A DNA stretch of 64,000 nucleotides from the NCBI GenBank assembly GCA_002763265.1, contig PEZQ01000003.1, positions 19,761 through 83,760 on the forward strand, in the 5' to 3' direction. This DNA comes from an archaeon CG10_big_fil_rev_8_21_14_0_10_43_11. Its GTDB lineage: Archaea > Nanobdellota > Nanobdellia > PEZQ01. Position numbers and translations under genes: made by a program. Position 1 is the first letter of the stretch. Every line of letters begins with the position of its first letter. Positions 5,328 through 35,604 of the stretch are shown piece by piece. The notes beneath the pieces were generated by a model. The model saw only the letters and a list, made by a program, of their open reading frames with translations. It had not been told where the DNA came from and ran no database searches.

Positions 5328-5401
5328 CTATGCACTAGCAAGAATCACACAACACCTTTTCTTAAGAAGAAAAGCTGTGCCAAAAGAAAAAGAACGTAAA
5401 A

Positions 5402-5474
5402 TAGCCCTGCCAGGATTCGAACCTGGGTCGCAAGGTTCAGAGCCTCGCATGCTTGGCCACTACACTACAGGGCT
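5402..5474 (-). tRNA. tRNA-Gln with anticodon CUG.
   Basis: The reverse complement folds as a cloverleaf. The acceptor stem is AGCCCUG/CAGGGCU, the anticodon stem CGAGG/CCUUG, the anticodon loop CUCUGAA and the T-arm CCAGG-UUCGAAU-CCUGG. No CCA is encoded. Confidence 0.85.
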
Positions 5475-5531
5475 AGTGATTTGCAGAGTGTTATATGGGG
5501 TGGTCTATTAAAAGGTTTTTGAAAGCCAAGT

Positions 5532-7398: not shown

Positions 7399-7456
7399 AA
7401 ACGCGCACCATAAAGAAGCAAAGCGCATATAAGTCTCTAATTGGGGTAGTGAAAGT

Positions 7457-8029
7457 ATGAAGAAAGTGCTTATTATTATTGGCCATCCCCAGCATGAGAG
7501 TTTTTCTCACACGCTTGCGCGCGCGTATAAAAAAGGAGCGCAAAGCGCGCACGCATCGGTGCGCATCATTGATGTGCGAACGCTTGAATTTGACCCGGTC
7601 TTATGGGAAGGTTATGGCGGTACGCAAGTGTTTGAACATGATTTGGAAGCAGCACAAGCACACATCACCTGGGCTGACCACATTGTGTTTGTCTACCCAA
7701 CGTGGTGGGGTGGTTTGCCTGCTCTTTTGAAGGGTTTTGTTGAGCGCGTTTTCTTGCCGGGTTTTGCATTCAAATATGAGAAAGGCAGCGGGCATAAAGA
7801 ATTGCTTGCCAGAAAAAGTGCGCGCATTATCACAACCGCGTACGAAGCCGTAAACTGGGTTGAGAAGATGCGTGCAAATGGGCATAAAGTCTTCAAATAT
7901 GACGTGCTCGAGTTTTGCGGTATGAAACCAGTGCATATGAGTTATATCGCGCCTGAAGGAAAGCCGGAGAGTGATATGCGCGCGTATTGGCAAAAACATG
8001 TGGAACGATTGGGCGCAAAGCTTGCATAA
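7457..8029 (+). CDS. NAD(P)H:quinone oxidoreductase of the Flavodoxin_2 family.
   Basis: VLIIIGHPQHESFSH and VFVYPTWWGGLPALLKG motifs. Confidence 0.75.
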   Translation: MKKVLIIIGHPQHESFSHTLARAYKKGAQSAHASVRIIDVRTLEFDPVLWEGYGGTQVFEHDLEAAQAHITWADHIVFVYPTWWGGLPALLKGFVERVFLPGFAFKYEKGSGHKELLARKSARIITTAYEAVNWVEKMRANGHKVFKYDVLEFCGMKPVHMSYIAPEGKPESDMRAYWQKHVERLGAKLA

Positions 8030-8063
8030 GCAGTAACATCCTTGTTTTTTAGAAATGAATAGA

Positions 8064-8903
8064 TTATTCAAATACTATTAGTGGCACGTTGCACGCGCTC
8101 CGATCTTTTTTTATAACGCCATCAAAAACAATGTCTGCAGGTCCAAGAAGAATAGGATTTTGCGTGCAATCAACTACAAGAGGTCCGCCCCTTGTTATGA
8201 CCGTAAGCGTGTTTTGCATGTTTCGTGCGATAACTGCTGCAATTGTGCACGCAGTGGCACCTGTTCCGCATGAGAGTGTTTCTGCTTCAACACCGCGTTC
8301 AAAGGTTCTGATACGAATCATAGTCTCATTAACAACATGTACCAAGTTCACGTTCACGCGTGTCTCAGGCAGGTTTTGAAGTGTGCGAATATGCGCAGCG
8401 CACGCATGAAGGTTGAATTGGTCTACATCAGGCACAAACATGACCACGTGCGGTTCTCCGCTGTTAACAAACACGCAATCATATTCATGTCCTTCAAAGT
8501 GAAAGGTAAATGAAAACACGTTGCGTGGCGCACCCATATCAACTTGAAAAAGGTCTTCTACGCGTAACACTTCTTTGATGCCTGCTCTGGTTTCAATACG
8601 CACATTTGGTCCAAAACCTTTTCTTTCGATAAGGTAGCGTGCAACGCAGCGAATCCCGTTTCCGCACATGTCAGACTGGGAGCCGTCGCGTTCAAGCACG
8701 ACCATTTTTGCGTCAGCAACATCTGATGGCTGAATAAGGAGAACTTGGTCTGCACCAATGCCAAAGTGTCGGTCGCATAATTTATGCAGGTTTGCATAGT
8801 GGTCGGTATTCAATTCAAGAATGATAAAATCATTTCCGCATCCTTGCATTTTTGTGAACGGGATATCGGGAGGCTCATCTTCAGCGGATACCGTGGCATT
8901 CAT
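8064..8903 (-). CDS. dapF: Diaminopimelate epimerase.
   Basis: FTKMQGCGNDFII, CGNGIRC and SCGTGA catalytic cysteine motifs. It has an N-terminal extension of about 13 aa relative to a canonical start. Confidence 0.9.
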   Translation of the reverse strand: MNATVSAEDEPPDIPFTKMQGCGNDFIILELNTDHYANLHKLCDRHFGIGADQVLLIQPSDVADAKMVVLERDGSQSDMCGNGIRCVARYLIERKGFGPNVRIETRAGIKEVLRVEDLFQVDMGAPRNVFSFTFHFEGHEYDCVFVNSGEPHVVMFVPDVDQFNLHACAAHIRTLQNLPETRVNVNLVHVVNETMIRIRTFERGVEAETLSCGTGATACTIAAVIARNMQNTLTVITRGGPLVVDCTQNPILLGPADIVFDGVIKKDRSACNVPLIVFE

Positions 8904-8993
8904 CGTATGGTTAACAGGAACTCATGTGTTTTGTTCTAAGTTAATTGCGACTAAGTATTTAAACGTTGCATTTGTCTCTCTTTTGACGTGTTC

Positions 8994-9064
8994 GCGCTGG
9001 TAGTCCAGTGGCAGGATTCGACCCTCCCAAGGTCGCGACCCGGGTTCAAATCCCGGCCGGCGCA
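8994..9064 (+). tRNA. tRNA-Gly with anticodon CCC.
   Basis: The acceptor stem GCGCUGG/CCGGCGC contains one G-U pair. The anticodon stem is CGACC/GGUCG with loop CUCCCAA, and the T-arm is CCGGG-UUCAAAU-CCCGG. Discriminator is A and no CCA is encoded. Confidence 0.85.
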
Positions 9065-9134
9065 TAGATTCACCACATAAGCATAGTTATTTTGGTATCA
9101 AAGCATTTAAGATTCTTTAACAAGTACCTAACTA

Positions 9135-9572
9135 ATGATGAAGCCAGTTACACTTGTCTCGCGCGTAATACATGAATACGCGTTTTATGGAATGTTTGTT
9201 GTTTGCTTACTTCTTGTTTTGTTCGCTGTTTTGCTTGGCATGTCGTTTGTAGCTGCACTCGTGTTCGTGCTTGGCCTGCCCATAAGCATGTACGCTAACA
9301 AGTATCTTAAAAACGCGTTTAAAACAAGCAGACCCCGAAACACACCCCAAACCATGGACTATTCATTTCCAAGCAATCACACGCAAACGGTAACCTACGT
9401 GCTCGTGTTTCTTGGCGTGCACGCACCATTTACCCTTGTGTTCACCCTTCCGCTTTTTATTGCACTTGTGTTTCATCGCCTTCAGGGAAAACACCACCAT
9501 CTTCAAGATATTATTGGAGGCGTGCTTTTTGGAAGCATAATCGCGTTTTTTCTCACTTTCCTCGCGCCGTAA
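9135..9572 (+). CDS. PAP2-family membrane phosphatase, a phosphatidic acid phosphatase type 2 domain.
   Basis: All three PAP2 motifs are present: KNAFKTSRP (KxxxxxxRP), PSNH (PSGH) and HRLQGKHHHLQD (SRxxxxxHxxxD). Confidence 0.7.
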   Translation: MMKPVTLVSRVIHEYAFYGMFVVCLLLVLFAVLLGMSFVAALVFVLGLPISMYANKYLKNAFKTSRPRNTPQTMDYSFPSNHTQTVTYVLVFLGVHAPFTLVFTLPLFIALVFHRLQGKHHHLQDIIGGVLFGSIIAFFLTFLAP

Positions 9573-9605
9573 TCTATTAAATTGCTCTGAGCATATTCAA
9601 TAGTT

Positions 9606-10949
9606 ATGGACAAGAAAAAAGCAATTCTTATCATGCTTTTTATTGCAAACCTGGTTCTTATCAGCAGCGTTTGGTACTATCAAAACACGCACTTTCGAGA
9701 CCCTGAACACACCATTGATGGCCACACGTTTATCGCGCTTGGCAGAATATTAGGACTCGTTGGCGCGTATCTTATTCTTTGCCAGTTCCTGCTTATTGGT
9801 CGCGTTGCATGGATTGAACGCGTGTTTGGTATGGATAATCTCTCACGCTACCATCACTACAATGGACTTGTTGGCTTCCTTTTTATTGTGTTTCACGTGT
9901 TTTTTATCGTGCTTGGATACTCGCTTAGCTCAAACACGCCATTTATCGAGCAATACTTTGTAATTCTCCAGTCACATATCATGTTTGTCATGGCAAGTAT
10001 TGCATTTTTCATGCTTGCGTTTCTCATCTTGTTTGCGCTCTCAATGGTGTATCTCAAACTCAACTATGAGCTCTGGTACCTCACGCACTTGTTCGTGTAC
10101 GCGGTTGTTGCACTTTCATTTTTCCACCAAGTCATAGGCGGTGCGGATTTTGTTCGTAATAACGCATTTCTTGGCTACTGGCTCGTTCTCTACACCTTTG
10201 TTTTTGTTAACTTTATTGCGTTCCGTTTCATAAAACCCATACGTCAATTCTTCTATCAGGATTATCGCGTTGAAAAACTTGTCAGAGAAACTGAAGATGT
10301 TACTTCAGTTTATATTACGGGAAAACATCTTGAAAAACTCAACACGCGCGCAGGACAATTCTTTATTTTCAGATTTCTCAGCAGAGATTTTTTCTGGCAA
10401 GCACACCCCTTCTCGCTTTCGCTTGCGCCAAACAACAAACACCTCCGTATTAGCATGAAATCACTTGGAGACTTTACAAACGCGGTTCCAAAAAAGCTCA
10501 AACCAGGAACGCGCGTGTTCATTGAAGGACCGCTTGGAAAGTTCACTCAGGAGCGTTCACGTCACGATGAGGTCACGCTTATTGCAGGAGGCATTGGCAT
10601 AACCCCGCTTCGCGCGCTTGCTGAAGCATTTGCAAAACAAAAAAAGAACGTGCAACTCATTTATGGCAATCAGACAAGCACGAATGTCGCGCTCAAACAT
10701 GAGCTTGACGCGCTTGCAAAAGAATACGAAAACTTTTCATGGACGCTTGTAGTCAGTGATGAACCCCACTACAAAGGCGAAAAAGGCTATATTGACACAC
10801 GGTTGCTTGCAAAACACGTTTTAAAACCTGCAAAAAAAGATTATTACGTGTGCGGACCAACTCCTATGATGAAAAGCGTTCGCACATGCCTCAAACAATT
10901 AGGAGTTAAGCGCGGAAATATTCACATTGAAAAATTTTCACTTGCTTAA
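9606..10949 (+). CDS. NOX/ferric-reductase-type flavocytochrome: a 6-TM di-haem domain joined to an FAD/NAD(P)-binding FNR-like domain.
   Basis: TM3 carries H-x13-H (HHYNGLVGFLFIVFH) and TM5 carries H-x12-H (HLFVYAVVALSFFH). The FAD motif HPFS and the NAD(P) motif GGIGITP are both present. Confidence 0.75.
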   Translation: MDKKKAILIMLFIANLVLISSVWYYQNTHFRDPEHTIDGHTFIALGRILGLVGAYLILCQFLLIGRVAWIERVFGMDNLSRYHHYNGLVGFLFIVFHVFFIVLGYSLSSNTPFIEQYFVILQSHIMFVMASIAFFMLAFLILFALSMVYLKLNYELWYLTHLFVYAVVALSFFHQVIGGADFVRNNAFLGYWLVLYTFVFVNFIAFRFIKPIRQFFYQDYRVEKLVRETEDVTSVYITGKHLEKLNTRAGQFFIFRFLSRDFFWQAHPFSLSLAPNNKHLRISMKSLGDFTNAVPKKLKPGTRVFIEGPLGKFTQERSRHDEVTLIAGGIGITPLRALAEAFAKQKKNVQLIYGNQTSTNVALKHELDALAKEYENFSWTLVVSDEPHYKGEKGYIDTRLLAKHVLKPAKKDYYVCGPTPMMKSVRTCLKQLGVKRGNIHIEKFSLA

Positions 10950-23614: not shown

Positions 23615-23695
23615 ACTGAATGTAGTAACACTCTTCTCATAAAAACCTTTTTGCCCAAAACAATTATTAACGTACAAACGCTCATAAAACAAGTA

Positions 23696-25027
23696 ATGAG
23701 TAGTGACGCGCTTGAATCATACACCATTGAAATAGATAACATTGGCGAAGGCCTTGAATCACACTACTTTAAAATACTCTCACTCATGCGCGTGCAAGGC
23801 TATGACGTGAGCAAAACAAAAGATGTGTATGCTTCATCTGAGATGAGCAGTTTCTGGGGGGACATGGCAAGACGCCGTGGCGAACAAGAATCACGCGCCA
23901 TGCAGCTTATGGGCACGCTCAATGGCATGGTCAAAGACCTTTTTAAGCTTGTGCGAACCGTTACCATTACTGAGGAGCGTTTAAGCTTTTACGACCGCTC
24001 AAAAGAAGGAGATTCAGCAGCAGATTCAGCACTCAAAGATATTTGGGTTACGCTTGTTGAACAAGGAACAAAAAACCCGGCATCAGTATTAGGTCTTGCA
24101 AGCCAAGTGGGGTTTGCGCCATTACCTGACTATTTTTACACTACGCGCGTACAAAACGCAGATGAGGTTGACACCATTGTTGGAAAATATGATATCTCAG
24201 AAAAGCTTGCCTACACGTTAAAGCGAAAACTCTCGCAATTCGTAGCATGGCGGGAGCGTTCAGAAAAAGAATTGCGCGTACGCCTTAAAGTTACAAAAAA
24301 CATGCTTCGAACCCACATCTCACAACTGCGTCTCTACGCAGAATGGTTAAAGCCCTATCTTCGCGCTATAAGCAAACTTCGAGACATTCAAGAAGAACGC
24401 CCTGAACTCGTTTCTTCTTTTGAAACCGCGTGGGTTGAACTCTCACTTGACGGCGTGAAAAAAGATGAGAAAAAATTTGGCAAAAACATTGCAGTAATCA
24501 AAGCAAATTTCACGCAACGAACCACACCCGCAGAAGCGTTCCAACAAAACTACCAAAAAGGATTTGTGCACCGCGGACGTGTTGAAATAAAACTCAGCGC
24601 GCACGTGTATACTGAAGACGAGTGGGCTAAAGAAAAAGCAAAAGAAGACGAAGAACTTTTTGACTTTCTTATCAAACACATTAATGAATCGCTTGCTGAC
24701 ATCAAAGATGATTTGATTCACGTTATGAATGATGATTACGAAAAGTTGTATCCAAAAAAGAAAAAAGAAGAGCATAAAACACGAAAAAAGTTTGGAGAAC
24801 AAATCTTAGACTCATTTCTTAATGTGTTCCCTTTTTTTGGGTATTTGAAAAAACCAAAAAATAAGAATGGGCCCTCATTTCACCGCATATTCAAGATGCA
24901 ACAAAAATTTGACGCACAAAAACAACGAGAAAGCGCTGAAACCACCGTTGCGTCAGGATATGAGGATGGCGATTTATGGAAAGTGTATGACTTATTCAAA
25001 CAAAGCCGCGGCTTTGCACGACCATGA
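23696..25027 (+). CDS. Large hypothetical protein, the first gene of the uncharacterised block.
   Basis: About 443 aa from the ATG at 23696 (the track TTG at 23651 would overlap the divergent gene). Charged and helical with a Lys-rich C-terminal tail. Its stop overlaps the next start in an ATGA arrangement. Confidence 0.45.
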   Translation: MSSDALESYTIEIDNIGEGLESHYFKILSLMRVQGYDVSKTKDVYASSEMSSFWGDMARRRGEQESRAMQLMGTLNGMVKDLFKLVRTVTITEERLSFYDRSKEGDSAADSALKDIWVTLVEQGTKNPASVLGLASQVGFAPLPDYFYTTRVQNADEVDTIVGKYDISEKLAYTLKRKLSQFVAWRERSEKELRVRLKVTKNMLRTHISQLRLYAEWLKPYLRAISKLRDIQEERPELVSSFETAWVELSLDGVKKDEKKFGKNIAVIKANFTQRTTPAEAFQQNYQKGFVHRGRVEIKLSAHVYTEDEWAKEKAKEDEELFDFLIKHINESLADIKDDLIHVMNDDYEKLYPKKKKEEHKTRKKFGEQILDSFLNVFPFFGYLKKPKNKNGPSFHRIFKMQQKFDAQKQRESAETTVASGYEDGDLWKVYDLFKQSRGFARP

Positions 25028-25596
25028 TGCGCGAAGAAGAACTCTTAAAAAAACTCAAAAACCTGCTAGATGAGTGTAAAGAACTTCCTTTTAGCGAAAA
25101 ACTCTTGTTTCTTGCACGACGCGCAGCAAAAGAAGCAGACCCGGAATTTCGTGCGGTTATGTACTTGTACATTGATTATGTCATAAAACAAAAAAATGAG
25201 AAGAAAACAGTTGACTTTCGCCTCCCTCCCTTGCGCGTTATTCAGCAAACTGCTCACAAACTTGAACGAGATGAGCACTTACAAAACTTGCTTGAAGGAG
25301 AACAAAAACCAGTTATCAAAAAGTCAAGAGAAGCAGGCGGACTCTACACCCCTCAATTCACTGCATCAGACTCTCACTCAGGTTCGTTTTATGCGGGCCC
25401 GCCTTCCGTAAAAAAAGGACTCTACACCGAACAATACACTCCTGGCGATGGTTTGTATGAACGCCAAACCCATGAAGAATATGATTCAGCTCCGCGTGGC
25501 GTTGAGTATGATTCATCACTTGAACACATTGCTGATGAAAAACACGAATCAGCTGAGAAAAAGCGGGAAAAAAATAAAGAAAAACTCTTATATTAG
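25024..25596 (+). CDS. Hypothetical protein with Tyr-containing short repeats, probably disordered.
   Basis: Carries GGLYTPQFT, KGLYTEQYTPGDGLYERQT and EEYDSAPRGVEYDSS repeats. Translationally coupled to the upstream gene. Confidence 0.4.
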   Translation: MMREEELLKKLKNLLDECKELPFSEKLLFLARRAAKEADPEFRAVMYLYIDYVIKQKNEKKTVDFRLPPLRVIQQTAHKLERDEHLQNLLEGEQKPVIKKSREAGGLYTPQFTASDSHSGSFYAGPPSVKKGLYTEQYTPGDGLYERQTHEEYDSAPRGVEYDSSLEHIADEKHESAEKKREKNKEKLLY

Positions 25597-25626: not shown

Positions 25627-27591
25627 ATGGTTCGCTTTGATTCAAATTATCTTAATGCAATGGACGCGCGCTACTACCCATCGGAACTAGGTACTACTGT
25701 TGCGCCCATGACTGAAGCGCAGCAGGGTGTTGACGCGCAGCTTCGCACAGGCGCAAAACTGATTGAAATAAACGTAGCAGACCCGGGCCAAGCATTTGCC
25801 GCGCGCGGGAGTGGCAGACCAATTCCTTCAGCAGGCTACGGCAAAGAGCAGCGCCAGGAAATAAAAGAGCTTGCGCAAGTCAACAAAGCAGCGCTCACCG
25901 TTCACAGTGGTTCAAGCACAAGCATGTCACCGCTTGGCCAGCAGGGTGTTGACGCGTATCAGCGCGCTCGCAACATGGATGAGTTACGTGCAAACGTTGA
26001 TTTTGCCCATGACATTGGTGCAGATAGTATTACGGTTCATGTTATTGGAACGCCCCGCCCCATACAATCAATTGGTGACACGCGTCTTAAACCCGAGGGT
26101 CTTGACCGTTATGATTTTGTTGACATGAAAACCGGTAAAATGGTGCACCAAGTTTCTGGAGACCAGGAAGTGCGCTTGCCTATTCTTGATAAAGTTGACT
26201 ATACTGATTCAACAGGAAAAAAACGAACTCGCTACAATTATCGCTATGATCCTGAGACTAAAGGAATTCAATATTATACCCCTGATACAATGGGGTTTAA
26301 AGGAGGGTCTGTTACTTTTGATCAGGCGGCACGTTTTTTTGAGGAAAAAATAAAAATAGGACAATTGCCCGGTTTTCAAGGAGAGGAATCAAAAAAATAT
26401 ACCGGCGCAGATATCGCGCTTCTCCATTATTTGCGCCAAAATGAAGTGCTCCAACAATCAGAATATGACCGTTGGGCAGCGCAATCAGAAGAACGACACA
26501 AACAATTAGAACTGCTTGGTAAACCTGGACAGGATGGCGCGCTCATTGACTATATTACTGGGCGAAAAAACCCGAACAGTCTTACTGCTCAACAACTGCG
26601 TGAACTTACCCATAAGGCAGATACGCTTATGAACAAACAGTTCAGTTTTGGTTCAAGCTTTGACCCTAGACGACCTGAAACATGGAGTTCTGCAAAAGAA
26701 CGAATCAATGAACAATACTCTCTTCTTGAACATGAACAACATTCTGCAATGGAACGCGCGGCAAACGCGTGGGGGAGCTTAAAACAAACTGAAGACTACC
26801 TGCACTCTGATGATAAAAACTACCCGCTTCGTCTCCAGCCGCTCACCAAGTTTGCGCACAAACAAAACGTTGATGGCATAGCAGACCTTGCTTACCATTC
26901 ATACCAGCGCAGCAAAGACACCGGAAAAAAAGTGATGATTAATCCAGAAAACATTTTCCCAAAATTCTATGGTTCTCACCCCGATGAGCTTAGGAACGTT
27001 ATTCAAAGCTCGCGAAGAGAGTTTGAACAAAAAATCGCTCATGACGTGTCTGATAAGAAAAAACGGGAGAGCATGTCAGAAGAATTTATTGGCGCGTGTT
27101 TTGATGTTGCGCACGCAGGAATGTGGCGCCGGTATTGGGAAGAAGAAGGCAAAGGAAAAAAGAATTTTGACGACTGGCTTGCAGACCAAGCAGAAGCCCT
27201 TGCAAAAGAGGGCATTATCAAAAAAGTGCACGTAAGCGACCACTTTGGCTATGAAGATGACTCGCTTCCTCCAGGCCAGGGAATTGTACCGCTCAAAAAA
27301 GTAGTTGACCGCATCAGAAAATATGAAGGAAAAATCCCTATTATTAGTGAAGGTTTTGGCGGCCCGCGAAGCCAGTCAGCAAAACAAGTGACTGAATCAT
27401 GGCGTCTTTTCAACCCGCACGTGTACAATCAAGCAACGGTTCTTGGCGGCGAAGCAGGCGAGACTTGGGACAAGCTTCACTACTTTGACAACAACATTAG
27501 AACATACACGCCCCATTTTCTTGCAGGAGATGCGGTTCCTGAAATGCTTCAGCCTGATTTTAGAACATGGGAAGAACTGCCTTTGGAGTAA
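25627..27591 (+). CDS. Xylose-isomerase-like TIM-barrel (sugar-phosphate isomerase or AP-endonuclease-2 superfamily) protein with a large internal insertion.
   Basis: The C-terminal CFDVAHAGMW ... VHVSDHFGYEDDSLPPGQGIVPL matches the hlHlxD...D...pGxGxid signature of this fold. N-terminal strands (LIEINVAD, ALTVHSGS, DFAHDIGADSITVHV) are separated from the C-terminal half by roughly 330 aa of unknown sequence. An internal 17-nt repeat (cagcagggtgttgacgcg) occurs twice. Confidence 0.5.
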   Translation: MVRFDSNYLNAMDARYYPSELGTTVAPMTEAQQGVDAQLRTGAKLIEINVADPGQAFAARGSGRPIPSAGYGKEQRQEIKELAQVNKAALTVHSGSSTSMSPLGQQGVDAYQRARNMDELRANVDFAHDIGADSITVHVIGTPRPIQSIGDTRLKPEGLDRYDFVDMKTGKMVHQVSGDQEVRLPILDKVDYTDSTGKKRTRYNYRYDPETKGIQYYTPDTMGFKGGSVTFDQAARFFEEKIKIGQLPGFQGEESKKYTGADIALLHYLRQNEVLQQSEYDRWAAQSEERHKQLELLGKPGQDGALIDYITGRKNPNSLTAQQLRELTHKADTLMNKQFSFGSSFDPRRPETWSSAKERINEQYSLLEHEQHSAMERAANAWGSLKQTEDYLHSDDKNYPLRLQPLTKFAHKQNVDGIADLAYHSYQRSKDTGKKVMINPENIFPKFYGSHPDELRNVIQSSRREFEQKIAHDVSDKKKRESMSEEFIGACFDVAHAGMWRRYWEEEGKGKKNFDDWLADQAEALAKEGIIKKVHVSDHFGYEDDSLPPGQGIVPLKKVVDRIRKYEGKIPIISEGFGGPRSQSAKQVTESWRLFNPHVYNQATVLGGEAGETWDKLHYFDNNIRTYTPHFLAGDAVPEMLQPDFRTWEELPLE

Positions 27592-27624
27592 TGTTTTTAA
27601 CAACCAACTACTCATAATAAGGGT

Positions 27625-27822
27625 ATGGGGATTATTAAAAAATTCAAACGAATGGTCTTTTTTGGACTTCTTGCAACTGCTGTTGCTGAAACAGTCTTTA
27701 TCTACAAAAACAGCAAGAAAAAAGTAGAAAATAAAGTGGAACGACTCAAAGAAACCCTTGAAGGCTACGCAATGGGTGGCGCAAAAGAAGAGAGTTCAAA
27801 AAAGAAGTCAAAGAAGAAATAA
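27625..27822 (+). CDS. Small single-TM protein with a Lys-rich tail.
   Basis: 65 aa starting at ATG, with a hydrophobic stretch MVFFGLLATAVAETVFI. Confidence 0.3.
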   Translation: MGIIKKFKRMVFFGLLATAVAETVFIYKNSKKKVENKVERLKETLEGYAMGGAKEESSKKKSKKK

Positions 27823-27828
27823 GCAATC

Positions 27829-28620
27829 ATGGAATTCAGACAAGAAGGGTTTGAAACGCCTAATCTCGAATATTACCATGCACAAAATTTAGCTATAGCG
27901 CGAGAATTCGCAAAAAAACTTCACCAAGAGTTTGGAGAATTTCTACAAGTTGCTGTTCTCTTTGGTTCGACAACCAAAGAAACTATGGGCGCCGAAAGTG
28001 ATGTTGACATTCTTACGGTAATTGATGATGTGCGCATGAATCTTAGTCAGGAATTGCTTGACGCGTATCAAATCATCACTGAAAAAATCATTGTCGAAGT
28101 CTCAAACCGCTTGCACGTGCACACCATCGCGCTCACTTCGTTTTGGGAATTCACGCGAAATGGTGACCCGGTCATTATCAACATTCTTCGTGATGGTGTT
28201 GCGCTCATTGACCATGGATTTTTTAACCCAATGCAGCGCATGCTTTTCCAGGGCCGTATCAGACCATCTGGGGAGAGTATTCACAATTATGCGAGTATGG
28301 CGCCAAAAGCTTTGTTTAATGCAAACCTGAAAATGCTGCAAGCCGTGATTGATTTGTACTGGGGTGCAATAGACATTACGCACGCGTACTTAATGAAGCA
28401 GGGAGAAATTCCCCTGAGTCCTGAACATGTGGTTAAGCCCATGAGCAAGTACAAAGCATTCAAAAAAGAGGACCGCGAGCTTGTTGCGTACTTGTACGAG
28501 CTTACTAAAAACATTCTCTACCGCAAAAAAAATGTGATTTCTGGAAAAGAATTTGATATGCTTAAAAAACGAACAGAAGACTACTACGAGCGAATCAAAA
28601 AAGAACTTGGCATTTACTGA
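27829..28620 (+). CDS. Pol-beta-superfamily nucleotidyltransferase domain protein with a C-terminal helical domain (paralog A).
   Basis: NTase signature LFGSTTKETMGAESDVDILTVIDD (GS-x9-D-x-D). The segment FWEFTRNGDPVIINILRDGVALIDHGFF is shared with the paralog at 29888. Confidence 0.6.
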   Translation: MEFRQEGFETPNLEYYHAQNLAIAREFAKKLHQEFGEFLQVAVLFGSTTKETMGAESDVDILTVIDDVRMNLSQELLDAYQIITEKIIVEVSNRLHVHTIALTSFWEFTRNGDPVIINILRDGVALIDHGFFNPMQRMLFQGRIRPSGESIHNYASMAPKALFNANLKMLQAVIDLYWGAIDITHAYLMKQGEIPLSPEHVVKPMSKYKAFKKEDRELVAYLYELTKNILYRKKNVISGKEFDMLKKRTEDYYERIKKELGIY

Positions 28621-29573
28621 GCGTTTTCTTCAGTCCAATTATGCTCCTCTTCATTATAACGTCTTTGAACAAGAGGTTGTGTTTCAACGTGTTCTACGTC
28701 ATTGTGAGGAATCTGCGTTAGTTGAACATTATGTATTGGCTCGTTTTCAACCATGTTATCCTGTGCCACGTTTGTGTCTAGTATTGTATCTGCGTCCTGC
28801 AGGTATTGCGGAAACGCAGTCTCTTCTTGCACCGCTTCCGCTGAAGTCTCAGCTGAATTGTCTAGCATCTCTTCAAGATTAGATTCGTCTGATTCAGGTG
28901 TAACTCGTTGCTCTTGAGCCGGCTCATCTCTGCGTTGATATGGAATGTTGAGAATTTCTTCTTCATTCATATCTTCTGCAAGGAAGCGCTCGTAATCGTT
29001 AACGCCCGCGTTCTTTTTTCCAGTCATCATACGATAAAGTGAGAGAAGTAAATCAATACGAGCTGCAACAAGTTCTGCGTTTTCCATGTTTGCTTCAAGA
29101 CCTTCAGTAACCGAGTAATCCGGAAGAATTTTGAGTTTTGAAAAACTATCCCACCCCTTAACCATAAGTTCATACGCTGAAGTGTTCACTAACTCTTTTG
29201 CTTCGGTCTCTGTTTTTCCAAACACTTTTTGGAAAACTTTCCGGTACGCATTTGCACCTTCTTTAATGATACTTGTATCAAGGGTATTTTGATGTTCTTG
29301 TGATAAGTTGAGACGCCAAATAAGATAGTCTTTCCAGGCATCTTTGCGTTCCCCTTCAAGATACGCATTTGCATAGACGGGCATAGAAACAGCACCAATA
29401 ATATCAAAATTATCTACACCCGCAATAGTAAGCGCACCATAGGGCATCTCATGTTCAGTTGCTACAGGATTGATAAGATTAGGCCGAACGTTTCGCGCTC
29501 GTTGCGGTCTGCGAGCGTCTTCTTGAGCAGCAAGACGTTGCTCAAGGTCTGATTGGGATAGATTCATTGCCAT
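28614..29573 (-). CDS. Hypothetical protein with a highly acidic C-terminal tail.
   Basis: 319 aa starting at ATG, with a Glu/Asp-rich C-terminus. It is convergent with paralog A and overlaps it by 7 bp. Confidence 0.4.
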   Translation of the reverse strand: MAMNLSQSDLEQRLAAQEDARRPQRARNVRPNLINPVATEHEMPYGALTIAGVDNFDIIGAVSMPVYANAYLEGERKDAWKDYLIWRLNLSQEHQNTLDTSIIKEGANAYRKVFQKVFGKTETEAKELVNTSAYELMVKGWDSFSKLKILPDYSVTEGLEANMENAELVAARIDLLLSLYRMMTGKKNAGVNDYERFLAEDMNEEEILNIPYQRRDEPAQEQRVTPESDESNLEEMLDNSAETSAEAVQEETAFPQYLQDADTILDTNVAQDNMVENEPIHNVQLTQIPHNDVEHVETQPLVQRRYNEEEHNWTEENAQ

Positions 29574-29658
29574 ATTATGTTTCCCGCGCTAAGTATGTGA
29601 TAACTGCTTTTTAAGTATTGCGGTAGTGCCTTTAAAGCGTGCGCAAGAACATAAAGGG

Positions 29659-29680
29659 GACGGTCGCCGAAGCGACCGTT
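29659..29680. promoter_or_regulatory. Perfect 8-bp hairpin with a CGAA loop in a divergent intergenic region.
   Basis: The sequence gacggtcgc-cgaa-gcgaccgt is flanked by G-runs. It lies upstream of both divergent genes and so is not at a gene end. Confidence 0.3.
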
Positions 29681-29887
29681 TGGGGAGGGAATGTAGAAAT
29701 GACGCAATCCCAACAAATGTTAAGATTTTGTCACTTATGAGTGGTCAAAACTGTCTCAGAATATTTAAATGTTACGTTTTTTGAGACCTATTGAGACATA
29801 TTGGTGGTTTTTGCGCGCCTGCATACCAATAGAAACTTTTAAAAGAAAACCTGCGTACTTACTTGCTATACAATAAGGTAATTTCTT

Positions 29888-31021
29888 ATGCCAAAACAAT
29901 CAAAAGCAAAACAACCACAGAAACCAGAAGAACCATCTAAAGAAGATGTTCTTAAAGCTATGCAAGCCCAAAAAGCAGCCCAAGACGCAAACGTGCCAGG
30001 CATGGGAAACCTCTCTGGTGTTGAGCTTTTGCAAAAAATGCACCGCATGCAGGAAGAACTTGGCACAAAACAAGGAATGAAACGCACTGCAGGCGACATT
30101 CTCAAAGAACGTGAACTCAAAATCCTCAACGAGTACTCAGTAAAAGTTGTGCAAAAATTTGGCAGATATATCAAAAGTGTAGTTGCCTTTGGTTCAACAA
30201 AACGAGGCAAAAACTCAGACATTGACGTTGCCGTTATTGTTGATGATACTGATGTTACCCGTATGACGCGCGGACAACTCAAAGACAAACTCTTCCAGCG
30301 CCTTATTGAAGTAGCGTACGTCACTGACAAAAAAATACACCCCCAACCCTACTTGCTTACTGAATTTTGGGAATACATCCGCCATGGAAACCCGGTCATG
30401 TACACGGTGATGCGAACAGGCATCCCCTTATATGACACTGGCTTTTTTCTTCCTGTACAGCTTATTTTTAAACAAGGACTTATCACTCCTTCAAGCGAAG
30501 CAATTGACCGGCACATTCTCATGTCAGTAGAACTGCTTCGCCTCACTGAAGACATGCTTAATCGCAAACTCATTTACAACATGGAACAAAGCATTGTAGC
30601 AGCAGGCCAAGCCGTGCTCATGGAACGCGGGTACCGCCCCCCTGCACCGCGTGAAATTGCTGATTTTCTAGAAAAACTTGTTGGAGAAAAGTTGTTTGCA
30701 CAAAAATATGCCGATATTGCACGAGAAATTGTTGACGTGTACAAACAAACCGAACATGGCACGCTCAAAGAGATTAAGGGCAAAGCAATTGATGATTATC
30801 TTGCAAAAACAACTGATTTTGTGAAGAAAATGGAAGATGTTCTCTCAAAAGAACGAAAAAAGAAAGGCGAAACGTACAAATTTAAGATTGCTGAAGACAA
30901 AGAGAAAGAAGAAAGCAAAAAGGTTAAAAGAGAAGGACTCATAGATGTTGAACGCAAACCAGTAGCAGAAACTGCAGACGAATCACAAAAAATCATTGAA
31001 GAAGGTCTTGCACAACGATGA
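29888..31021 (+). CDS. Pol-beta-superfamily nucleotidyltransferase domain protein with a C-terminal helical domain (paralog B).
   Basis: VVAFGSTKRGKNSDIDVAVIVDD and EFWEYIRHGNPVMYTVMRTGIPLYDTGFF. It has a Lys/Glu-rich C-terminal tail. Its stop overlaps the L35Ae start in an ATGA arrangement. Confidence 0.6.
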   Translation: MPKQSKAKQPQKPEEPSKEDVLKAMQAQKAAQDANVPGMGNLSGVELLQKMHRMQEELGTKQGMKRTAGDILKERELKILNEYSVKVVQKFGRYIKSVVAFGSTKRGKNSDIDVAVIVDDTDVTRMTRGQLKDKLFQRLIEVAYVTDKKIHPQPYLLTEFWEYIRHGNPVMYTVMRTGIPLYDTGFFLPVQLIFKQGLITPSSEAIDRHILMSVELLRLTEDMLNRKLIYNMEQSIVAAGQAVLMERGYRPPAPREIADFLEKLVGEKLFAQKYADIAREIVDVYKQTEHGTLKEIKGKAIDDYLAKTTDFVKKMEDVLSKERKKKGETYKFKIAEDKEKEESKKVKREGLIDVERKPVAETADESQKIIEEGLAQR

Positions 31022-31299
31022 CAGACAAAAAAGTAGCAAAACAAAGCGCACGAATACTTAATTACCGTCAAGGTCGAAGAACCCAAACCCCAAACCAAAT
31101 CATTCTCAATATTGGGGCAAAAAGCAAAGAAGACGCAAACAAATACCTAGGCAGAAAAGTCGTGTACACCACATCAAGCGGAAAAGAACTCCACGGCGTT
31201 ATTACCCGTGTGCACGGAAATTCTGGCGCAGTTATTGCTCGATTTTCAAAAGGTCTTCCAGGACAAGCACTTGGCAAAGATGTAGCACTTTTTAGCTAA
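31018..31299 (+). CDS. rpl35ae: Ribosomal protein L35Ae.
   Basis: 93 aa with the L35Ae pattern ...GRKVVYTTSSGKELHGVITRVHGNSGAVIARFSKGLPGQALGKDV. Confidence 0.7.
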   Translation: MTDKKVAKQSARILNYRQGRRTQTPNQIILNIGAKSKEDANKYLGRKVVYTTSSGKELHGVITRVHGNSGAVIARFSKGLPGQALGKDVALFS

Positions 31300-31364
31300 T
31301 TATCCTTGCATAGTGGGGTTAGAGTACAAGTATTAATTTAAATTGTTCTCACAACAACTAGAGC

Positions 31365-33374
31365 ATGAACAAGCCCTTGCTCTCGTATAAACGAAAAACA
31401 CTTGCAGACCAGTTATCTGAGTGGGATCAAAAAACGCCTGTTTTGGACCATTTTTTCAAAGAAGGCAAAAATCAGCATTCTAATGAGTCACGAACAGTTC
31501 TTCTGATGAGCCAATACCGTGATGGTGTGATGGTAAGCGCAGATTCAATGACCTCAGCAGGCTTTCGCCAGGCAACTCTTTCGTCTCAAAAGGTCTCATA
31601 CCTTAATCCGCTTGTTATAAGCGCGGGAACAGGCTATGTTTATCCTCTCTACGAGATTGAAGCAATCACCCAACGTGCTTCAGCAAAAGAAATGGCTTTT
31701 CGCCAAATCTCGCTTGGCCTTGACAATCCAAAAAGCATTCCCCGCGTTGAGGAGCTTGCAGAATTCAGTTCCAGCGTATTCAAAAAGCTTGCATACTTTT
31801 ATCCTATGCACCTGGGTGTTCTTCTTATGGGAGGTATGAACGCAGAAAACCAGCCAGCACTTTATTCTTCAGAATCTCCTGGCGCCATGTTTCACTTTAA
31901 TAATGTGTTTGACCGGCATGCAGCAGGGGCGCATGATGCACCCCTTCTCTTTGCTGTTGATGGGTGCGGGTATAATGAGACTGGTAAAGAAATTCGCGAC
32001 CTTACTGAGGATGATACCTCTTTTTTCAAATACAAAACGCGCAACTCGTTTACGCGAGAAAAATCGCTTATTGCACACCTAAAAGCAACTACTGCGTCAT
32101 TTAAGGATAAAGACGGCAGCACTCAGGGTGTTGGCGGAAATGTGTATCTTGCCTACATCCACAACAATAATGGCCGGTTTGAGCCACACTTTGATGTGTT
32201 TGATTACAAAAAAATAACAACATGGAAAGACGAGTTTAACACGCTTGAGCTTCTTATCAAAAAAGATGAAGCAATTGATAATGTGGAGGGCATTGGTGAT
32301 ATTAATGCATTCATTGATTCCTTGCGTGCAGAATATAATGGAACCACACTCCAATACAATGGCGAACACAACCACTTTTCAGCGCCATTTACGCCGTTTT
32401 ACCGCGTTCAGGCGTTCAAGCCTGATACGCACCGATTGAATACAATTTTTGACATTAAAATCCCGCATTCAACTATGAAATTTAGCGTGTCAAAAACAGG
32501 AAGTGATTCATTTGATTCTGCGGCGTTTGGAAATGTATATGGAAAAGCGCTTGGCGCACTCAGACAAGGAGAAACACCCTTTGAACAGTCATCAATGCTC
32601 GCGTTCAAATTCAATTCAACCCCTGACCCGGTTGAACAAAATTCTTTGTTCAAAACACTTCCAAGTGTTGGCCTGTTCCGTCTTGACCCCCCACACCTGC
32701 GCAACTACGAGCACGCTACAATCCTTAACTTTGACTATGGCGAAGTTGGTTTCGGCTCGTTTTATGTGACGGGTATGCACAAACTTCTTTCACGAACCCC
32801 TGAAATCCTTGTTAACCAGCTTTTTATTGATCACGCACTTAGTGACATAACGCGAAACCTCCCTTTGCGCGCAAACATTGAAGAAAACTTTCCTGTGCTT
32901 GAAAGCCATCTTCGATATTACCTTGAATTTGATAGTGCAGACTTTTTGCAAGACAAATCAAGCGCGTATGTAGGCATTATTGGTGAAATACAAAATGACG
33001 CAACCATTAATTTGTGGGAAAGCTCGCCTCTTGGTGTTGGTTTTAGAAAAACCAATGACGCACTTGCAATCATGCCAGAACAAGCGCACGCATCAAAGCT
33101 TGAAGAACTCATGGTAAAACACGTTGTGAATAATGAACAGTCAAACCAGGATGATATTGCCCTTACCAAAGGCCTTGCTTATTTTGTTCAAGCTCACTAT
33201 CATGGACACGCACTGCGCTCATATGACAAGATTTCAAAAGATCTTAACACACGCCTTTCAATTCGGGTTCCCGCATTTAACCGCGCGTCATACAACAGCG
33301 TTGTGCAACAAAAGAAGAAAGAATGGTTTATTGACCGTTCTCTTAAATACCTCAAAAGCGTGACAAAACGATAA
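31365..33374 (+). CDS. Proteasome-beta-like Ntn-hydrolase domain fused to a C-terminal region of about 440 aa with unknown function.
   Basis: Residues from about 44 read T-VLLMSQYRDGVMVSADSMTSAGFRQATLSSQK, placing Thr1, Asp17 and Lys33 exactly as in 20S beta subunits. The segments ISAGTGYV and GVLLMGGMN match the beta-subunit GxxxD and GG motifs. No known domain was recognised in the rest of the protein. Confidence 0.6.
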   Translation: MNKPLLSYKRKTLADQLSEWDQKTPVLDHFFKEGKNQHSNESRTVLLMSQYRDGVMVSADSMTSAGFRQATLSSQKVSYLNPLVISAGTGYVYPLYEIEAITQRASAKEMAFRQISLGLDNPKSIPRVEELAEFSSSVFKKLAYFYPMHLGVLLMGGMNAENQPALYSSESPGAMFHFNNVFDRHAAGAHDAPLLFAVDGCGYNETGKEIRDLTEDDTSFFKYKTRNSFTREKSLIAHLKATTASFKDKDGSTQGVGGNVYLAYIHNNNGRFEPHFDVFDYKKITTWKDEFNTLELLIKKDEAIDNVEGIGDINAFIDSLRAEYNGTTLQYNGEHNHFSAPFTPFYRVQAFKPDTHRLNTIFDIKIPHSTMKFSVSKTGSDSFDSAAFGNVYGKALGALRQGETPFEQSSMLAFKFNSTPDPVEQNSLFKTLPSVGLFRLDPPHLRNYEHATILNFDYGEVGFGSFYVTGMHKLLSRTPEILVNQLFIDHALSDITRNLPLRANIEENFPVLESHLRYYLEFDSADFLQDKSSAYVGIIGEIQNDATINLWESSPLGVGFRKTNDALAIMPEQAHASKLEELMVKHVVNNEQSNQDDIALTKGLAYFVQAHYHGHALRSYDKISKDLNTRLSIRVPAFNRASYNSVVQQKKKEWFIDRSLKYLKSVTKR

Positions 33375-33377
33375 ATC

Positions 33378-35387
33378 ATGGAGCCACAACAGTACAGCGC
33401 AAAGGTGCTCTTGCACCTTCTTGACCTTCAAAAAGATACGTTTGAGCATGCGCAATCATCTCCTCTTAAATCAGCGTACGCGCGCTACCTTTCTGCAGTG
33501 TTTTCTGAAACCAATTCGTTTTACAAATATGTTGCAACAAGCATTGGTGAGAAAACACAAGATCTGCACTACTGGATTCGCATCAAAGACTCGCTTGATT
33601 TTGCTATCACTGCCTTAAGCGTTGCTGAATCAGGTCATGCCGTGCTCAAAGACTTAAGCAGGGATTCGCGTTCATTTAACCGGCTCAAAAACAATATGTC
33701 TCTTGAAGCGCTCAGCGAACGTACCGGCGCATCCTATGCGTCATGGCATGATGTTAAAGAGGATATTGACCGTCTTATTGCGTTTAATTATGGTGTGTGC
33801 GCAAAAACTATTACTGATGTTATTTCATTTTCAGATGACTTGTATGCATCTGTGCAATCACTTGGCTGGGACAGTACTGAAGCACTTGCAAATCTTGAAC
33901 TGCTTGAAAAAATAGAACTGCTCAAACGCAGAATTGCCGGGCAAGGCTCATTTGTTGAGCGAACCAATTTTGACTATTCACGATTATGGTCGCTTGTGTC
34001 AAAAAACAAGATTAACAAGGAAAACGCGCTTGAACTCTTTGATAAAACACTCACTAAATCGTTTAATGCGTTTAAACGAACCTATGAGAAAAAAGAATCC
34101 ATATTCAAAAAAGCCATTGGCGAAGTTGAGTTTATGGAAGAGAAACTCGGACACGTAAGCGTGCTCACAAGCATAATTGAAAATAATACCGGACCAATTA
34201 ACCGGTACAAAAAAACGTTTGAAAAAGTAATACCAAAGCTTGCCCAAACAAAACCGCTCTTTTATGCTCCTGCACTAGACCTTGTTTGGGACATGCTTAA
34301 TCAGACAAAAAATGCACTTTTTGATGTGTATACAAGTAAGAGCCAACGAGAAGACTATGGTCTTTTACCACTCAAGCCCCATGACCCTACCGCGGGTCTT
34401 AATAACGATGAGTGGCTTGCCTTCTGGAAGTTTATTGGACAAAGCACCATTAAAACTGCTGCGCTCTTTTGTGAACATGAACACATGCAGGTAACCGCAA
34501 CGCTTGAAGGTCTGCTTACCATTCCTGACGTTATTATTTCAGAAAAACAAGTCGAGCGCGCAAAGCCCGTTCTTTGCTCGCTTAATTCTGAACTTACCGC
34601 GCTTGCAAACCACCCTTTTTTTACGAGTGACACCTCAGAACTTGATGACATGTTTCTTAGCTCATTTAGTAAGGTGTATGCAATGAGTTACTTGGTCCGC
34701 TGGTTTAAAACAAAAAACGCAGAGAAACTGCCTGAAATTATAGAAGAAATCCAGCGTGAATTTGAAAACTCCCTGCCCGCTAATCCAAAAGAACGGGCAG
34801 AACACGTTTCGCGCGTTATAACTAAAATACATTCGCTTGTTGATTCCGAAAGGTATGGTATTCCTCTTGAAGAATCCCACACCATGCTAAGCGTGCTTGA
34901 TAAGTTTGCCCTTCATGATGGGGATAGCGTGATTGAAGACTTCTACACTGACTTTTATTCAAAATACAACAAATTCATGCAAAAATCAGAAGCATATGCA
35001 AGTGTTGCCCGCAAAGTTCCGACACTCGTTCCTGCGCTCAAAGAATCGCTTGAACAATCATTTGAAGCATTTAATTTTGAAGGCTACTACGAACACGTGA
35101 TTGCAGACTTGCTTCGAATGAAACACGCACTTGAAGAGCACAGCACAAAAATCACGCCAAACACGTATGACAAACGCCAACAAGACCTTATTTCAGGCGA
35201 AGAAACACTCTACTCTGATAACGTTGAAGTGCGCTGCTGGTTTCAGGCACTCTCAGCGCTCAATGATATAACAGAACCATACTCAGACCATGAAATCATG
35301 ATGGAGCTTTCAAGAAAAGCAAAGCACTTGCTTGATAACACCAAAGAAACCTCAAAAGCACTTGACCGACTGCGAACCATGAAATAA
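33378..35387 (+). CDS. Large all-helical hypothetical protein, co-operonic with the Ntn-hydrolase fusion.
   Basis: 669 aa, starting 4 bp after the upstream stop. No nucleotide-binding motifs were seen. Confidence 0.45.
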   Translation: MEPQQYSAKVLLHLLDLQKDTFEHAQSSPLKSAYARYLSAVFSETNSFYKYVATSIGEKTQDLHYWIRIKDSLDFAITALSVAESGHAVLKDLSRDSRSFNRLKNNMSLEALSERTGASYASWHDVKEDIDRLIAFNYGVCAKTITDVISFSDDLYASVQSLGWDSTEALANLELLEKIELLKRRIAGQGSFVERTNFDYSRLWSLVSKNKINKENALELFDKTLTKSFNAFKRTYEKKESIFKKAIGEVEFMEEKLGHVSVLTSIIENNTGPINRYKKTFEKVIPKLAQTKPLFYAPALDLVWDMLNQTKNALFDVYTSKSQREDYGLLPLKPHDPTAGLNNDEWLAFWKFIGQSTIKTAALFCEHEHMQVTATLEGLLTIPDVIISEKQVERAKPVLCSLNSELTALANHPFFTSDTSELDDMFLSSFSKVYAMSYLVRWFKTKNAEKLPEIIEEIQREFENSLPANPKERAEHVSRVITKIHSLVDSERYGIPLEESHTMLSVLDKFALHDGDSVIEDFYTDFYSKYNKFMQKSEAYASVARKVPTLVPALKESLEQSFEAFNFEGYYEHVIADLLRMKHALEEHSTKITPNTYDKRQQDLISGEETLYSDNVEVRCWFQALSALNDITEPYSDHEIMMELSRKAKHLLDNTKETSKALDRLRTMK

Positions 35388-35604
35388 AAAAGTGTTAACA
35401 GTTTACCATGTTCCCAAATTGAATTCAGTACAGATGATAACGCACATGGGCTTAACTTCCGAGTTCGAAAAGGGATCGGGTGTTTCCCCACACACTTTGA
35501 CCGTTAACGTTGAGCTACAAGTTATGAGGAGTATTTAAAGATTACTCAGGGGTGGGAGAGTGGGAAAAACCTTTAAGTGTTCTTAGCAGTATACTATTGG
35601 TACG

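Follow-up and report, generated by a model that had tools for sequence, protein, structure and literature searches.

The DPANN archaeon CG10_big_fil_rev_8_21_14_0_10_43_11 carries, just ahead of the ribosomal protein gene rpl35ae, two genes for Pol-beta-type nucleotidyltransferases (NTases), which we call A and B (locus tags COT72_01170 and COT72_01180, by exact database matches). An earlier note, made from the sequence alone, had singled out this pair and the overlap of the second gene with rpl35ae, and had offered RNA 3'-tailing, for instance by a divergent CCA-adding enzyme, or a co-opted signalling or defence role as explanations. Here we describe the domains, gene context and distribution of the two proteins, starting from a 64-kb stretch of the 377-kb contig PEZQ01000003.1 (hereafter the window; 90% coding density, 42% GC, one 5S rRNA gene and two tRNA genes). 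For the family profiles we used 65 B-type and 80 A-type homologues (145 members, 27–50% identity). Gene context was read from context look-ups and from 44 loci of GTDB species representatives, with our own calls of open reading frames (ORFs) and iterated hidden Markov models (HMMs); conservation counts refer to 19 non-redundant species-level loci, with smaller denominators where a locus ends early.

NTases A and B and their domains

The two NTases and the ribosomal protein gene lie on the same strand, with the following parts:

27829–28620, + strand: NTase A, 263 aa (PF01909 E=2.9e-7)
27874–28263, + strand: MNT-type NTase domain of A, about residues 16–145
27964–27969 and 28000–28008, + strand: NTase motif of A, G46-S47 and D58-x-D60
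28264–28617, + strand: HEPN-like helical domain of A, about residues 146–263
29888–31021, + strand: NTase B, 377 aa (PF01909 E=1.1e-6)
residues 1–70 of B, + strand: charged N-terminal extension
30101–30487, + strand: MNT-type NTase domain of B, about residues 72–200
30191–30196 and 30218–30226, + strand: NTase motif of B, G102-S103 and D111-x-D113
30488–30877, + strand: HEPN-like domain of B, about residues 201–330, holding the motif Y285-K-x-x-E289-H290
31018–31299, + strand: rpl35ae (eL33/L35Ae), 93 aa (PF01247 E=7.3e-20; NF003326 96.1 bits against a cutoff of 85)

The proposal that A and B are a paralogous pair of Pol-beta NTases holds. BLASTP aligns 259 residues of the two at 27% identity (E=7e-30), profile-profile comparison of the two families gives 100% probability and E=3.8e-58 over 252 columns, and PF01909 (NTP_transf_2) scores 31.2 bits in A and 29.3 bits in B, both above its gathering score of 21 bits. 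Nearly all family members are matched in Pfam by NTP_transf_2/Polbeta (PF01909/PF18765). The common motif FWE[FY].R.G.PV...R.G..L.D.GFF is present in both proteins, as is the Pol-beta MNT signature hG[GS]-x(7-13)-Dh[DE]h. The GS...DxD signature that the earlier note reported is likewise found in both, with a spacing of ten residues in A and seven in B in place of the nine given there. Identity to orthologues is 38–75% for A and 39–79% for B; because this far exceeds the 27% between A and B, the duplication predates the divergence of the lineages, and by sequence comparison the two are true, anciently diverged paralogues that form two subfamilies.

AlphaFold2 models of both proteins, which we compared with the PDB by Foldseek, show an alpha/beta NTase domain and, C-terminal to it, a bundle of long helices. 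The predicted local distance difference test score is 90.8 for A and 76.7 overall for B, with a confident core at residues 70–330, and the predicted template modelling (pTM) scores are 0.57–0.64. Helical C-terminal domains had been expected and are there; their size had been put at 150–250 residues and comes to about 118 in A, and in B to about 130 plus a charged tail of 47 residues with a conserved ...GLxQR end. The structural matches comprise MNT antitoxins (7ae9, 6m6v and 5yep; NTase domain only), HalB of the Hailong system, two-domain aminoglycoside and lincosamide NTases, and GlnE. At the top stand MNT antitoxins, HalB and two-domain aminoglycoside NTases for A, and AAD(9), AadA, MntA, LinB and HalB for B. 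The two-domain matches, namely AAD(9), AadA, ANT(4')/kanamycin nucleotidyltransferase (KNTase) and LinB, have the same layout as A and B. When A, B and the profiles of the two families were searched against the PDB, only short matches to the NTase core came back.

The helical domains resemble HEPN domains. PF05168 (HEPN) matches 12 of the 65 B members (best E=4.7e-6) and 2 of the 80 A members, and database records call relatives "HEPN" or "UPF0332". Given these matches and labels and the Foldseek results, each protein is an MNT NTase fused to a degenerate HEPN-like four-helix domain in the layout of KNTase.

The NTase site is strongly conserved. The glycine and both aspartates of the signature are invariant in all A and B sequences, and the serine is kept in 64 of 65 B (S103) and 77 of 80 A sequences (S47). 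Invariant in A are G46, D58, D60, D67 and H96; invariant in B are G102, D111, D113, D119, D122, H151, Q153, Y155, E159, K286, E289 and H290. A third catalytic carboxylate was looked for and is not there: strand beta-3 of either AlphaFold2 model carries no acidic residue and has an invariant histidine instead (H96 in A, H151 in B). In the profile alignment, H96 of A pairs with an aspartate on the equivalent strand of the solved MNT 9xbd_E. An invariant aspartate just past strand beta-2 (D119/D122 in B, D67 in A) might serve as a stand-in carboxylate.

The HEPN ribonuclease motif Rx4-6H is absent, its catalytic arginine being gone from both families. The corresponding stretch of B reads Y285-K286-x-x-E289-H290, with Y285 in 60 of 65 sequences (92%), the lysine, glutamate and histidine invariant, and an arginine at −7 in just 6 of 65; that of A reads K227-x-I-T-H231, with the histidine in 65 of 80 sequences and a tyrosine in the window's own A. 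Judged by these residues, A and B are very unlikely to be HEPN ribonucleases. By analogy, the constrained K/E/H helix may complete the transferase site as the helical domain of KNTase does, an obligate dimer (1KNY) in which residues of that domain complete the active site.

A gene block from g1 to rpl35ae

The two NTase genes belong to a block that is common to the lineages with a short-form B, in which the order is g1, g2, g3, A, a variable minus-strand ORF (X), B and rpl35ae. The remaining members in the window are:

23651–25027, + strand: g1, first gene of the block, 458 aa, alpha-helical and K/E-rich; the TTG start is uncertain
25024–25596, + strand: g2, 190 aa, low complexity, conserved by position only
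25627–27591, + strand: g3, 654 aa, MJ1311-like TIM-barrel metalloenzyme of the AP_endonuc_2 superfamily (PF01261)
28614–29573, − strand: X, acidic, 319 aa (isoelectric point, pI, 4.47); the slot between A and B is conserved, the sequence is not

Counted by position, g1 is present in 17 of 17 loci and g3, A and B in 19 of 19 each. The flanks are less conserved. Their largest homologous groups comprise 5 of 17 loci at the second gene downstream of B and, at the two positions upstream of g1, 6 of 12 and 7 of 11 loci. L35Ae follows B directly in 13 of 18 loci and after one small ORF in two more, and five partial loci (L008–L010, L025, L026) have the same order of B and L35Ae. It does not follow B in L003/L051, L005/L052 (Haiyanarchaeum) and L017; trm1 is the next gene downstream of B in L005/L052, whereas in L003/L051 two genes separate it from B. 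More widely, trm1 and TFIIB are found downstream in several loci.

The described ATGA overlap between the B stop and the rpl35ae start is present (...CAA CGA TGA, with the ATG at 31018), and there is no alternative rpl35ae start upstream of the conserved L35Ae region. The junction measures −4 nucleotides (nt) in the window, L001, L019/L020, L021 and L024, −14 in L023, +3 in L014 and 25–55 nt in six other loci. Six lineages have an overlap of ATGA type or close to it. Such overlaps are not unusual in the window, where 7 of 44 same-strand neighbour pairs overlap, four of them ATGA-type. Because overlaps are not rare in this genome, the one between B and rpl35ae says little alone; what counts is that it persists in relatives at about 45–80% protein identity. 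The refuting condition of the earlier note, that no relative would keep the coupling, fails, since L35Ae directly follows B in most of the loci. The junction between g3 and A is equally tight (−1 to 14 nt in ten loci, up to 42 nt in most others), and the coupling of A to g3 is therefore no weaker than that of B to rpl35ae. The earlier note thus caught the rpl35ae coupling and the acidic ORF between the NTase genes, and missed the larger DPANN block, the coupling of A to g3 and the previous flagging of the family in DPANN archaea (PMC6393860).

PF01261 was matched in 20 of 20 orthologues of g3, which are 490–650 aa long. A helical, charged insertion of about 300 residues separates the strands that bear H138 and E441, and is present at every DPANN block locus. 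Nine columns have ligand-type residues (H93, H138, E441, D493, H496, H535, D544, H546 and E575), eight of them invariant and D544 conserved in at least 90%, and they are spaced as in endonuclease IV (D-x2-H, D-x-H). Without the insertion, the g3 profile matches MJ1311 (3wqo) over the whole barrel at E=1.2e-22, with all nine columns matched; Apn1 gives 1e-4, E. coli endonuclease IV 0.019 and sugar 3-epimerases 1e-6 to 1e-4. NCBIfam returns weak matches only, to fructoselysine 3-epimerase (10 of 20 orthologues), the phosphodiesterase CbiR (8 of 20) and nfo. MJ1311p (3WQO) and g3 thus have in common a D-tagatose-3-epimerase-like TIM barrel and nine His/Asp/Glu ligand columns, whereas the large insertion and the operon coupling to A belong to g3; the methanogen MJ1311 homologues are 250–280 aa long. 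We equate the nine ligand residues of g3 and MJ1311 with those of the trinuclear zinc centre in endonuclease IV. Work by Uechi et al. in 2014 (Acta Cryst F) is said to have found in MJ1311p the nine endonuclease IV zinc ligands, no DNA groove and no known function. The methanogen homologues adjoin ribosomal-protein, Hef, PolD or RNA-binding genes. MJ1311 itself has been listed as the M. jannaschii protein predicted to be homologous to endonuclease IV (PMC2770678).

The other block members are less readily placed. Neither alignments nor profile searches gave Pfam, NCBIfam or PDB homology for g1, g2 or X, and for g1 a 16-sequence profile also had no Pfam or PDB match. Homologues of g1 are 380–630 aa long across loci and keep S63, K129, D160, W200, L208, Y229, W232, P235, Y446 and K450 invariant; the end of g1 overlaps the start of g2 by 4 nt. 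By description only, g1 might be the DPANN "alpha helical protein in house-keeping context" cls.004340/NEQ484 (PMC6393860). The g2 slot is filled by a + strand ORF of 150–236 aa between g1 and g3 in 16 loci, with 25% mean column identity and no invariant column. The X slot holds a minus-strand ORF of 120–620 aa in 18 of 19 loci, of which the largest BLAST-linked group has 6 of 18 members; the alignment of X shows 14% column identity.

Further features lie in and beside the block:

27625–27822, + strand: small basic ORF, 65 aa with one hydrophobic helix, lineage-specific and outside the core block
29658–29681, + strand: perfect GC-rich 10-bp hairpin, GGACGGUCGC-CGAA-GCGACCGUUU (dG −15.8 kcal/mol, z=−2.35)
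35393–35508, − strand: 5S rRNA gene, following two tandem 669-aa ORFs

Homologues of the 65-aa ORF were found in just 3 loci, all close relatives; in most of the others A abuts g3, with 0–14 nt between them. The hairpin lies in the divergent intergenic region of 314 nt between X and B, and an Rfam scan of 27500–31500 at a relaxed threshold gave no match, the hairpin included. An A/T-rich TATA-like box is present at 29836–29850, about 40 nt upstream of the B start. Directly downstream of rpl35ae, where trm1 sits in several relatives, are the two tandem ORFs (31365–33374 and 33378–35387); they have no homologue in 55 related loci, and the first shows a faint match to a proteasome subunit (PF00227, E=0.03).

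Distribution, long forms and comparison with known enzymes

The family is DPANN-restricted, vertically inherited and single-copy. Homologues of A and B with a named source belong to Nanoarchaeota, Woesearchaeota, Parvarchaeota, Aenigmarchaeota and Nanobdellota, with the exception of five GTDB contigs titled "uncultured Methanosarcinales archaeon", a label that is probably a mistake on the several long-form-B contigs that bear it. A profile search of 1.84 billion cluster representatives found 220 clusters (50% identity) at E<=1e-30 and 1,385 at E<=1e-3; the top 147 new representatives were 97 of A type and 50 of B type.

A family of this description has been flagged before. Makarova, Wolf and Koonin (2019) list cls.004259 (NEQ050) as a DPANN-specific "MNT fused to HEPN... 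typically in house-keeping context", one of four top DPANN-specific uncharacterised families, whose unusual conservation suggests an important role (PMC6393860). Matched by description, A and B very probably are this family: the domain fusion, the DPANN restriction and the house-keeping neighbours (rpl35ae, trm1, TFIIB, S8e and L37e near A or B) agree. That account consists of one table line and one paragraph, without the two subfamilies, the block, the rpl35ae linkage, the loss of the arginine or the pseudo-dimers described below (PMC6393860), and in the literature that we searched we found no later characterisation. The two ancient subfamilies, the conserved block with an MJ1311-like metalloenzyme and the Woesearchaeota pseudo-dimers appear to be new here.

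In Woesearchaeota the short B is replaced by a form of 600–650 aa. Dissection with HMMs and hhalign resolves this form into a B-type NTase domain without GS and DxD (99.5%, 3e-23), an intact NTase domain, a HEPN-like domain, a second, altered HEPN-like domain (93%, 3e-7) and a C-terminal domain of 95 aa. This last part (about residues 531–625 in P0085, P0100 and P0107) is conserved and beta-rich (…RIRVKHGxRYGEVILLDK.AFIIHDIDHE.KE…), and shows no similarity to the NTase or HEPN parts. In P0241, a very acidic protein of 633 aa from another lineage, two full NTase–HEPN units stand in tandem, and the second NTase is dead. Every pseudo-dimer retains one intact NTase site. From these covalent pseudo-dimers we infer a working unit of two NTase and two HEPN-like domains in which one live site suffices. 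We also considered the long proteins as a "Rosetta stone" for an A–B heterodimer and rejected this, the fused forms being internal duplications of B type and not A–B fusions; as both halves are B-type, a B2 dimer is favoured over an A–B heterodimer.

Two neighbours of long-form B deserve mention. A MoxR AAA+/DUF58/VWA/BatA ("Bat-like") operon lies divergently upstream (L034, 1085–9574, − strand), at the same positions in L030, L032–L038, L041, L043 and L045, and offers no functional lead. In the woesearchaeal locus L006 a classic type VII pair (8882–9650, − strand; HepT-like protein of 114 aa and MNT of 146 aa) directly adjoins a 625-aa long-form B (7001–8878), placing a genuine module and the fused form side by side in the same lineage.

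Two of the identities first suggested for A and B can be set aside. Class I archaeal CCA enzymes are proteins of about 440 aa with a head-neck-body-tail arrangement that includes PF09249. Neither neck, body and tail domains nor a tRNA_NucTransf2 (PF09249) match was found in any of the 145 members; A and B are 263 and 377 aa long, and their C-terminal domain is HEPN-like. A scan for the class I motif "GFSGY" matched none of the ORFs of the window and of the relatives' loci. A CD-NTase or OAS-like identity fares no better, with CBASS_cyclase_b at 14.8 bits against a cutoff of 200 and a PADLOC cyclase match of 17 bits; nor do the neighbours g3, X and rpl35ae have effector-type domains in Pfam.

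The question of CCA addition arises from the tRNA genes of the window:

5401–5475, − strand: tRNA-Gln(CUG), no encoded 3' CCA
8994–9064, + strand: tRNA-Gly(CCC), no encoded 3' CCA

Because both genes lack an encoded CCA, the organism needs an enzyme activity that adds it. Within the 64 kb we found no canonical cca gene, and A and B are the only ORFs of at least 150 aa there with a GS...DxD signature. COG1746 serves as an archaeal single-copy marker in the literature, and a survey of 177 high-quality genomes indicates that DPANN archaea as a rule have a CCA enzyme of class I or class II (10.64898/2026.05.29.728689).

Proposed function and its alternatives

We are confident that A and B are housekeeping NTases of the MNT–HEPN-fusion type rather than defence, toxin–antitoxin or CCA enzymes. 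As to their activity we lean, with low confidence, toward dimeric transfer of a nucleoside monophosphate (NMP) to a housekeeping RNA or other macromolecule, with an RNA 3' end as the favoured acceptor. Each protein would act as a dimer, by analogy with KNTase dimers and MNT2:HEPN2 complexes. A nucleoside triphosphate (NTP) with Mg would bind at GS/DxD, where the invariant beta-3 histidine (H96 or H151) would take the place of the usual third carboxylate, and the K-x-x-[E/T]-H helix of the HEPN-like domain, where the RNase motif region survives without its arginine, would help to complete the site. The acceptor of the NMP would be a hydroxyl group on some conserved macromolecule of the cell, most readily an RNA 3' end. 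B might be directed toward ribosome- or tRNA-linked RNA, because it is basic (pI 9.1) with charged tails, is presumably co-expressed with eL33 and is often followed by trm1. A could work with the abutting MJ1311/endonuclease-IV-type phosphoesterase g3 in end healing and tailing, in which g3 could prepare the 3'-OH.

Several points weigh against NMP transfer to RNA and against reading the block as a functional unit. RNA was chosen as the substrate from gene context and charge. Proteins are what MntA and GlnE modify, the nearest to the NTase domain in sequence and structure, and small molecules are the targets of the nearest two-domain relatives (ANT, Lnu). The Foldseek E values are only 1e-5 to 1e-3, and full-length superposition leaves a root-mean-square deviation of about 20 Å. 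Without the third carboxylate, catalysis could be altered or weakened. Genes in streamlined genomes can keep their order although they do not work together. Outside DPANN we looked for a pairing of MJ1311 with an NTase and found no NTase neighbours in Methanococcus, Methanobrevibacter or Methanomassiliicoccaceae. Nor is the block universal: in Woesearchaeota the neighbour of long-form B is the MoxR/VWA/BatA operon in place of rpl35ae, and A is apart from g3.

The first alternative, to which we give a minor share of belief, is that A and B are protein nucleotidylyltransferases (AMPylases like MntA and GlnE) that regulate a partner by adenylylating one of its Tyr, Ser or Thr residues, the partner being g1, g3, X, some ribosomal protein or the HEPN-like domain of the enzyme itself. 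The top matches of the NTase domain are MntA antitoxins, which AMPylate HEPN toxins (template modelling score about 0.55–0.6, target-normalised), and GlnE is matched too; the GSx(n)DxD motif and a HEPN partner are common to both systems, and the fusion mirrors the MNT–HEPN pair of enzyme and substrate. Conserved aromatic residues also lie near the motif (Y285 in B, Y223 in A). However, the tyrosine that MntA modifies stands two residues after the HepT histidine (RX4HXY), and this acceptor position is not conserved in our families, being E, D or R in B and mostly E in A. MntA-family membership (NF047752) was rejected at 25.9 and 20.5 bits, far under the cutoff of 60, and among the candidate targets only g1 and g3 are conserved in sequence.

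Two further alternatives strike us as improbable, and about equally so. In one, A and B are small-molecule NTases of the ANT/Lnu type that act on a metabolite, cofactor or host compound, with g3 as a sugar-phosphate epimerase or phosphodiesterase of the same pathway. KNTase ANT(4'), AadA, AAD(9) and LinB indeed have, like A and B, an N-terminal Pol-beta NTase domain and a C-terminal helical bundle, match them over the full length in Foldseek (E 1e-4 to 1e-3) and recur as weak NCBIfam matches to ANT models, and the fructoselysine 3-epimerase and CbiR matches of g3 orthologues fit such a pathway. Yet likeness in sequence is limited to about 50 residues around GS/DxD (E 0.003–1), and membership of the ANT(4')/KNTase and lincosamide families was rejected at 14.9–21.7 bits against cutoffs of 340–505, with phmmer against the PDB giving E 0.26–1. 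ANT and Lnu are mobile antibiotic-resistance genes, whereas A and B are vertically inherited core genes, near-universal, single-copy and syntenic beside translation genes in metabolically minimal DPANN archaea, and the charged tails of B are typical of nucleic-acid binders.

In the other, the proteins have little or no transferase activity and serve as structural or nucleotide-sensing components, for example NTP-binding scaffolds of the ribosome or another complex. Replacement of the third carboxylate by histidine in both families, the tolerance of a fully dead NTase domain in the pseudo-dimers and the low pTM scores are in keeping with this. The strict invariance of the glycine, both DxD aspartates and more acidic residues points to maintained chemistry, though, as does the one intact site kept in every pseudo-dimer.

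It is less plausible still that the fusion works as a type VII toxin–antitoxin or anti-phage module, with the MNT neutralising a HEPN RNase in cis. Type VII systems consist of two small genes, an MNT of about 100–150 aa and a HEPN protein of about 110–140 aa, which are bicistronic and patchily distributed. MNT plus HEPN is this classic pair, HalB is matched, the candidate MNT-type PADLOC models PDC-S09 (8e-13) and PDC-M05A (1.8e-6) match A, and the cluster was at first taken as "most probably a toxin-antitoxin module" (PMC6393860). Against this, the HEPN part is fused in the same chain and the arginine of Rx4-6H is gone, with Y285 in nearly all B sequences; the histidine, too, is lost in 15 of 80 A sequences, the window's A included. 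The fusion and the loss of the Rx4-6H motif also dispose of the suggestion of a standard MNT antitoxin. A and B are neither patchy nor mobile but stand in a fixed block in 19 species-level loci with housekeeping neighbours, and L006 has a genuine split MNT and HepT pair beside its long-form B. Defence finders that build on MNT and HEPN, such as these two PADLOC models, may thus mis-score housekeeping genes of the A/B type in DPANN archaea as immunity. The reported enrichment of PDC-M05 in archaea (PMC12988326) could be inflated by the DPANN A/B family.

The least credible alternative is a split non-canonical CCA system in the manner of Aquifex, with one paralogue adding CC and the other A, or another tRNA 3'-tailing enzyme: the window's tRNA genes without CCA, the lack of another GS...DxD ORF and the conserved neighbours trm1 and rpl35ae would suit it, but no family member has neck, body or tail domains or a tRNA_NucTransf2 match, and DPANN archaea generally carry CCA1 or CCA2 (10.64898/2026.05.29.728689).

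Returning to housekeeping NTases that may transfer NMP to RNA, a bolder extension, speculative and on balance unlikely, is that g1-g2-g3-A-X-B-rpl35ae is a DPANN-specific housekeeping machine with no counterpart elsewhere. It would be a candidate for RNA 3'-end healing and tailing or for ribosome or tRNA maturation, built from a domesticated toxin–antitoxin pair with a disarmed HEPN domain that would now be essential, one paralogue being made stoichiometrically with eL33.

A and B are among the very few DPANN-specific near-universal families, kept by nearly all sampled Nanoarchaeota-type lineages despite their tiny genomes, and families of this sort were ranked top priority for experiments by Makarova et al. 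(PMC6393860). The present analysis makes a testable system out of what had been one line of annotation, and a likely case of toxin–antitoxin parts domesticated into core cell biology.

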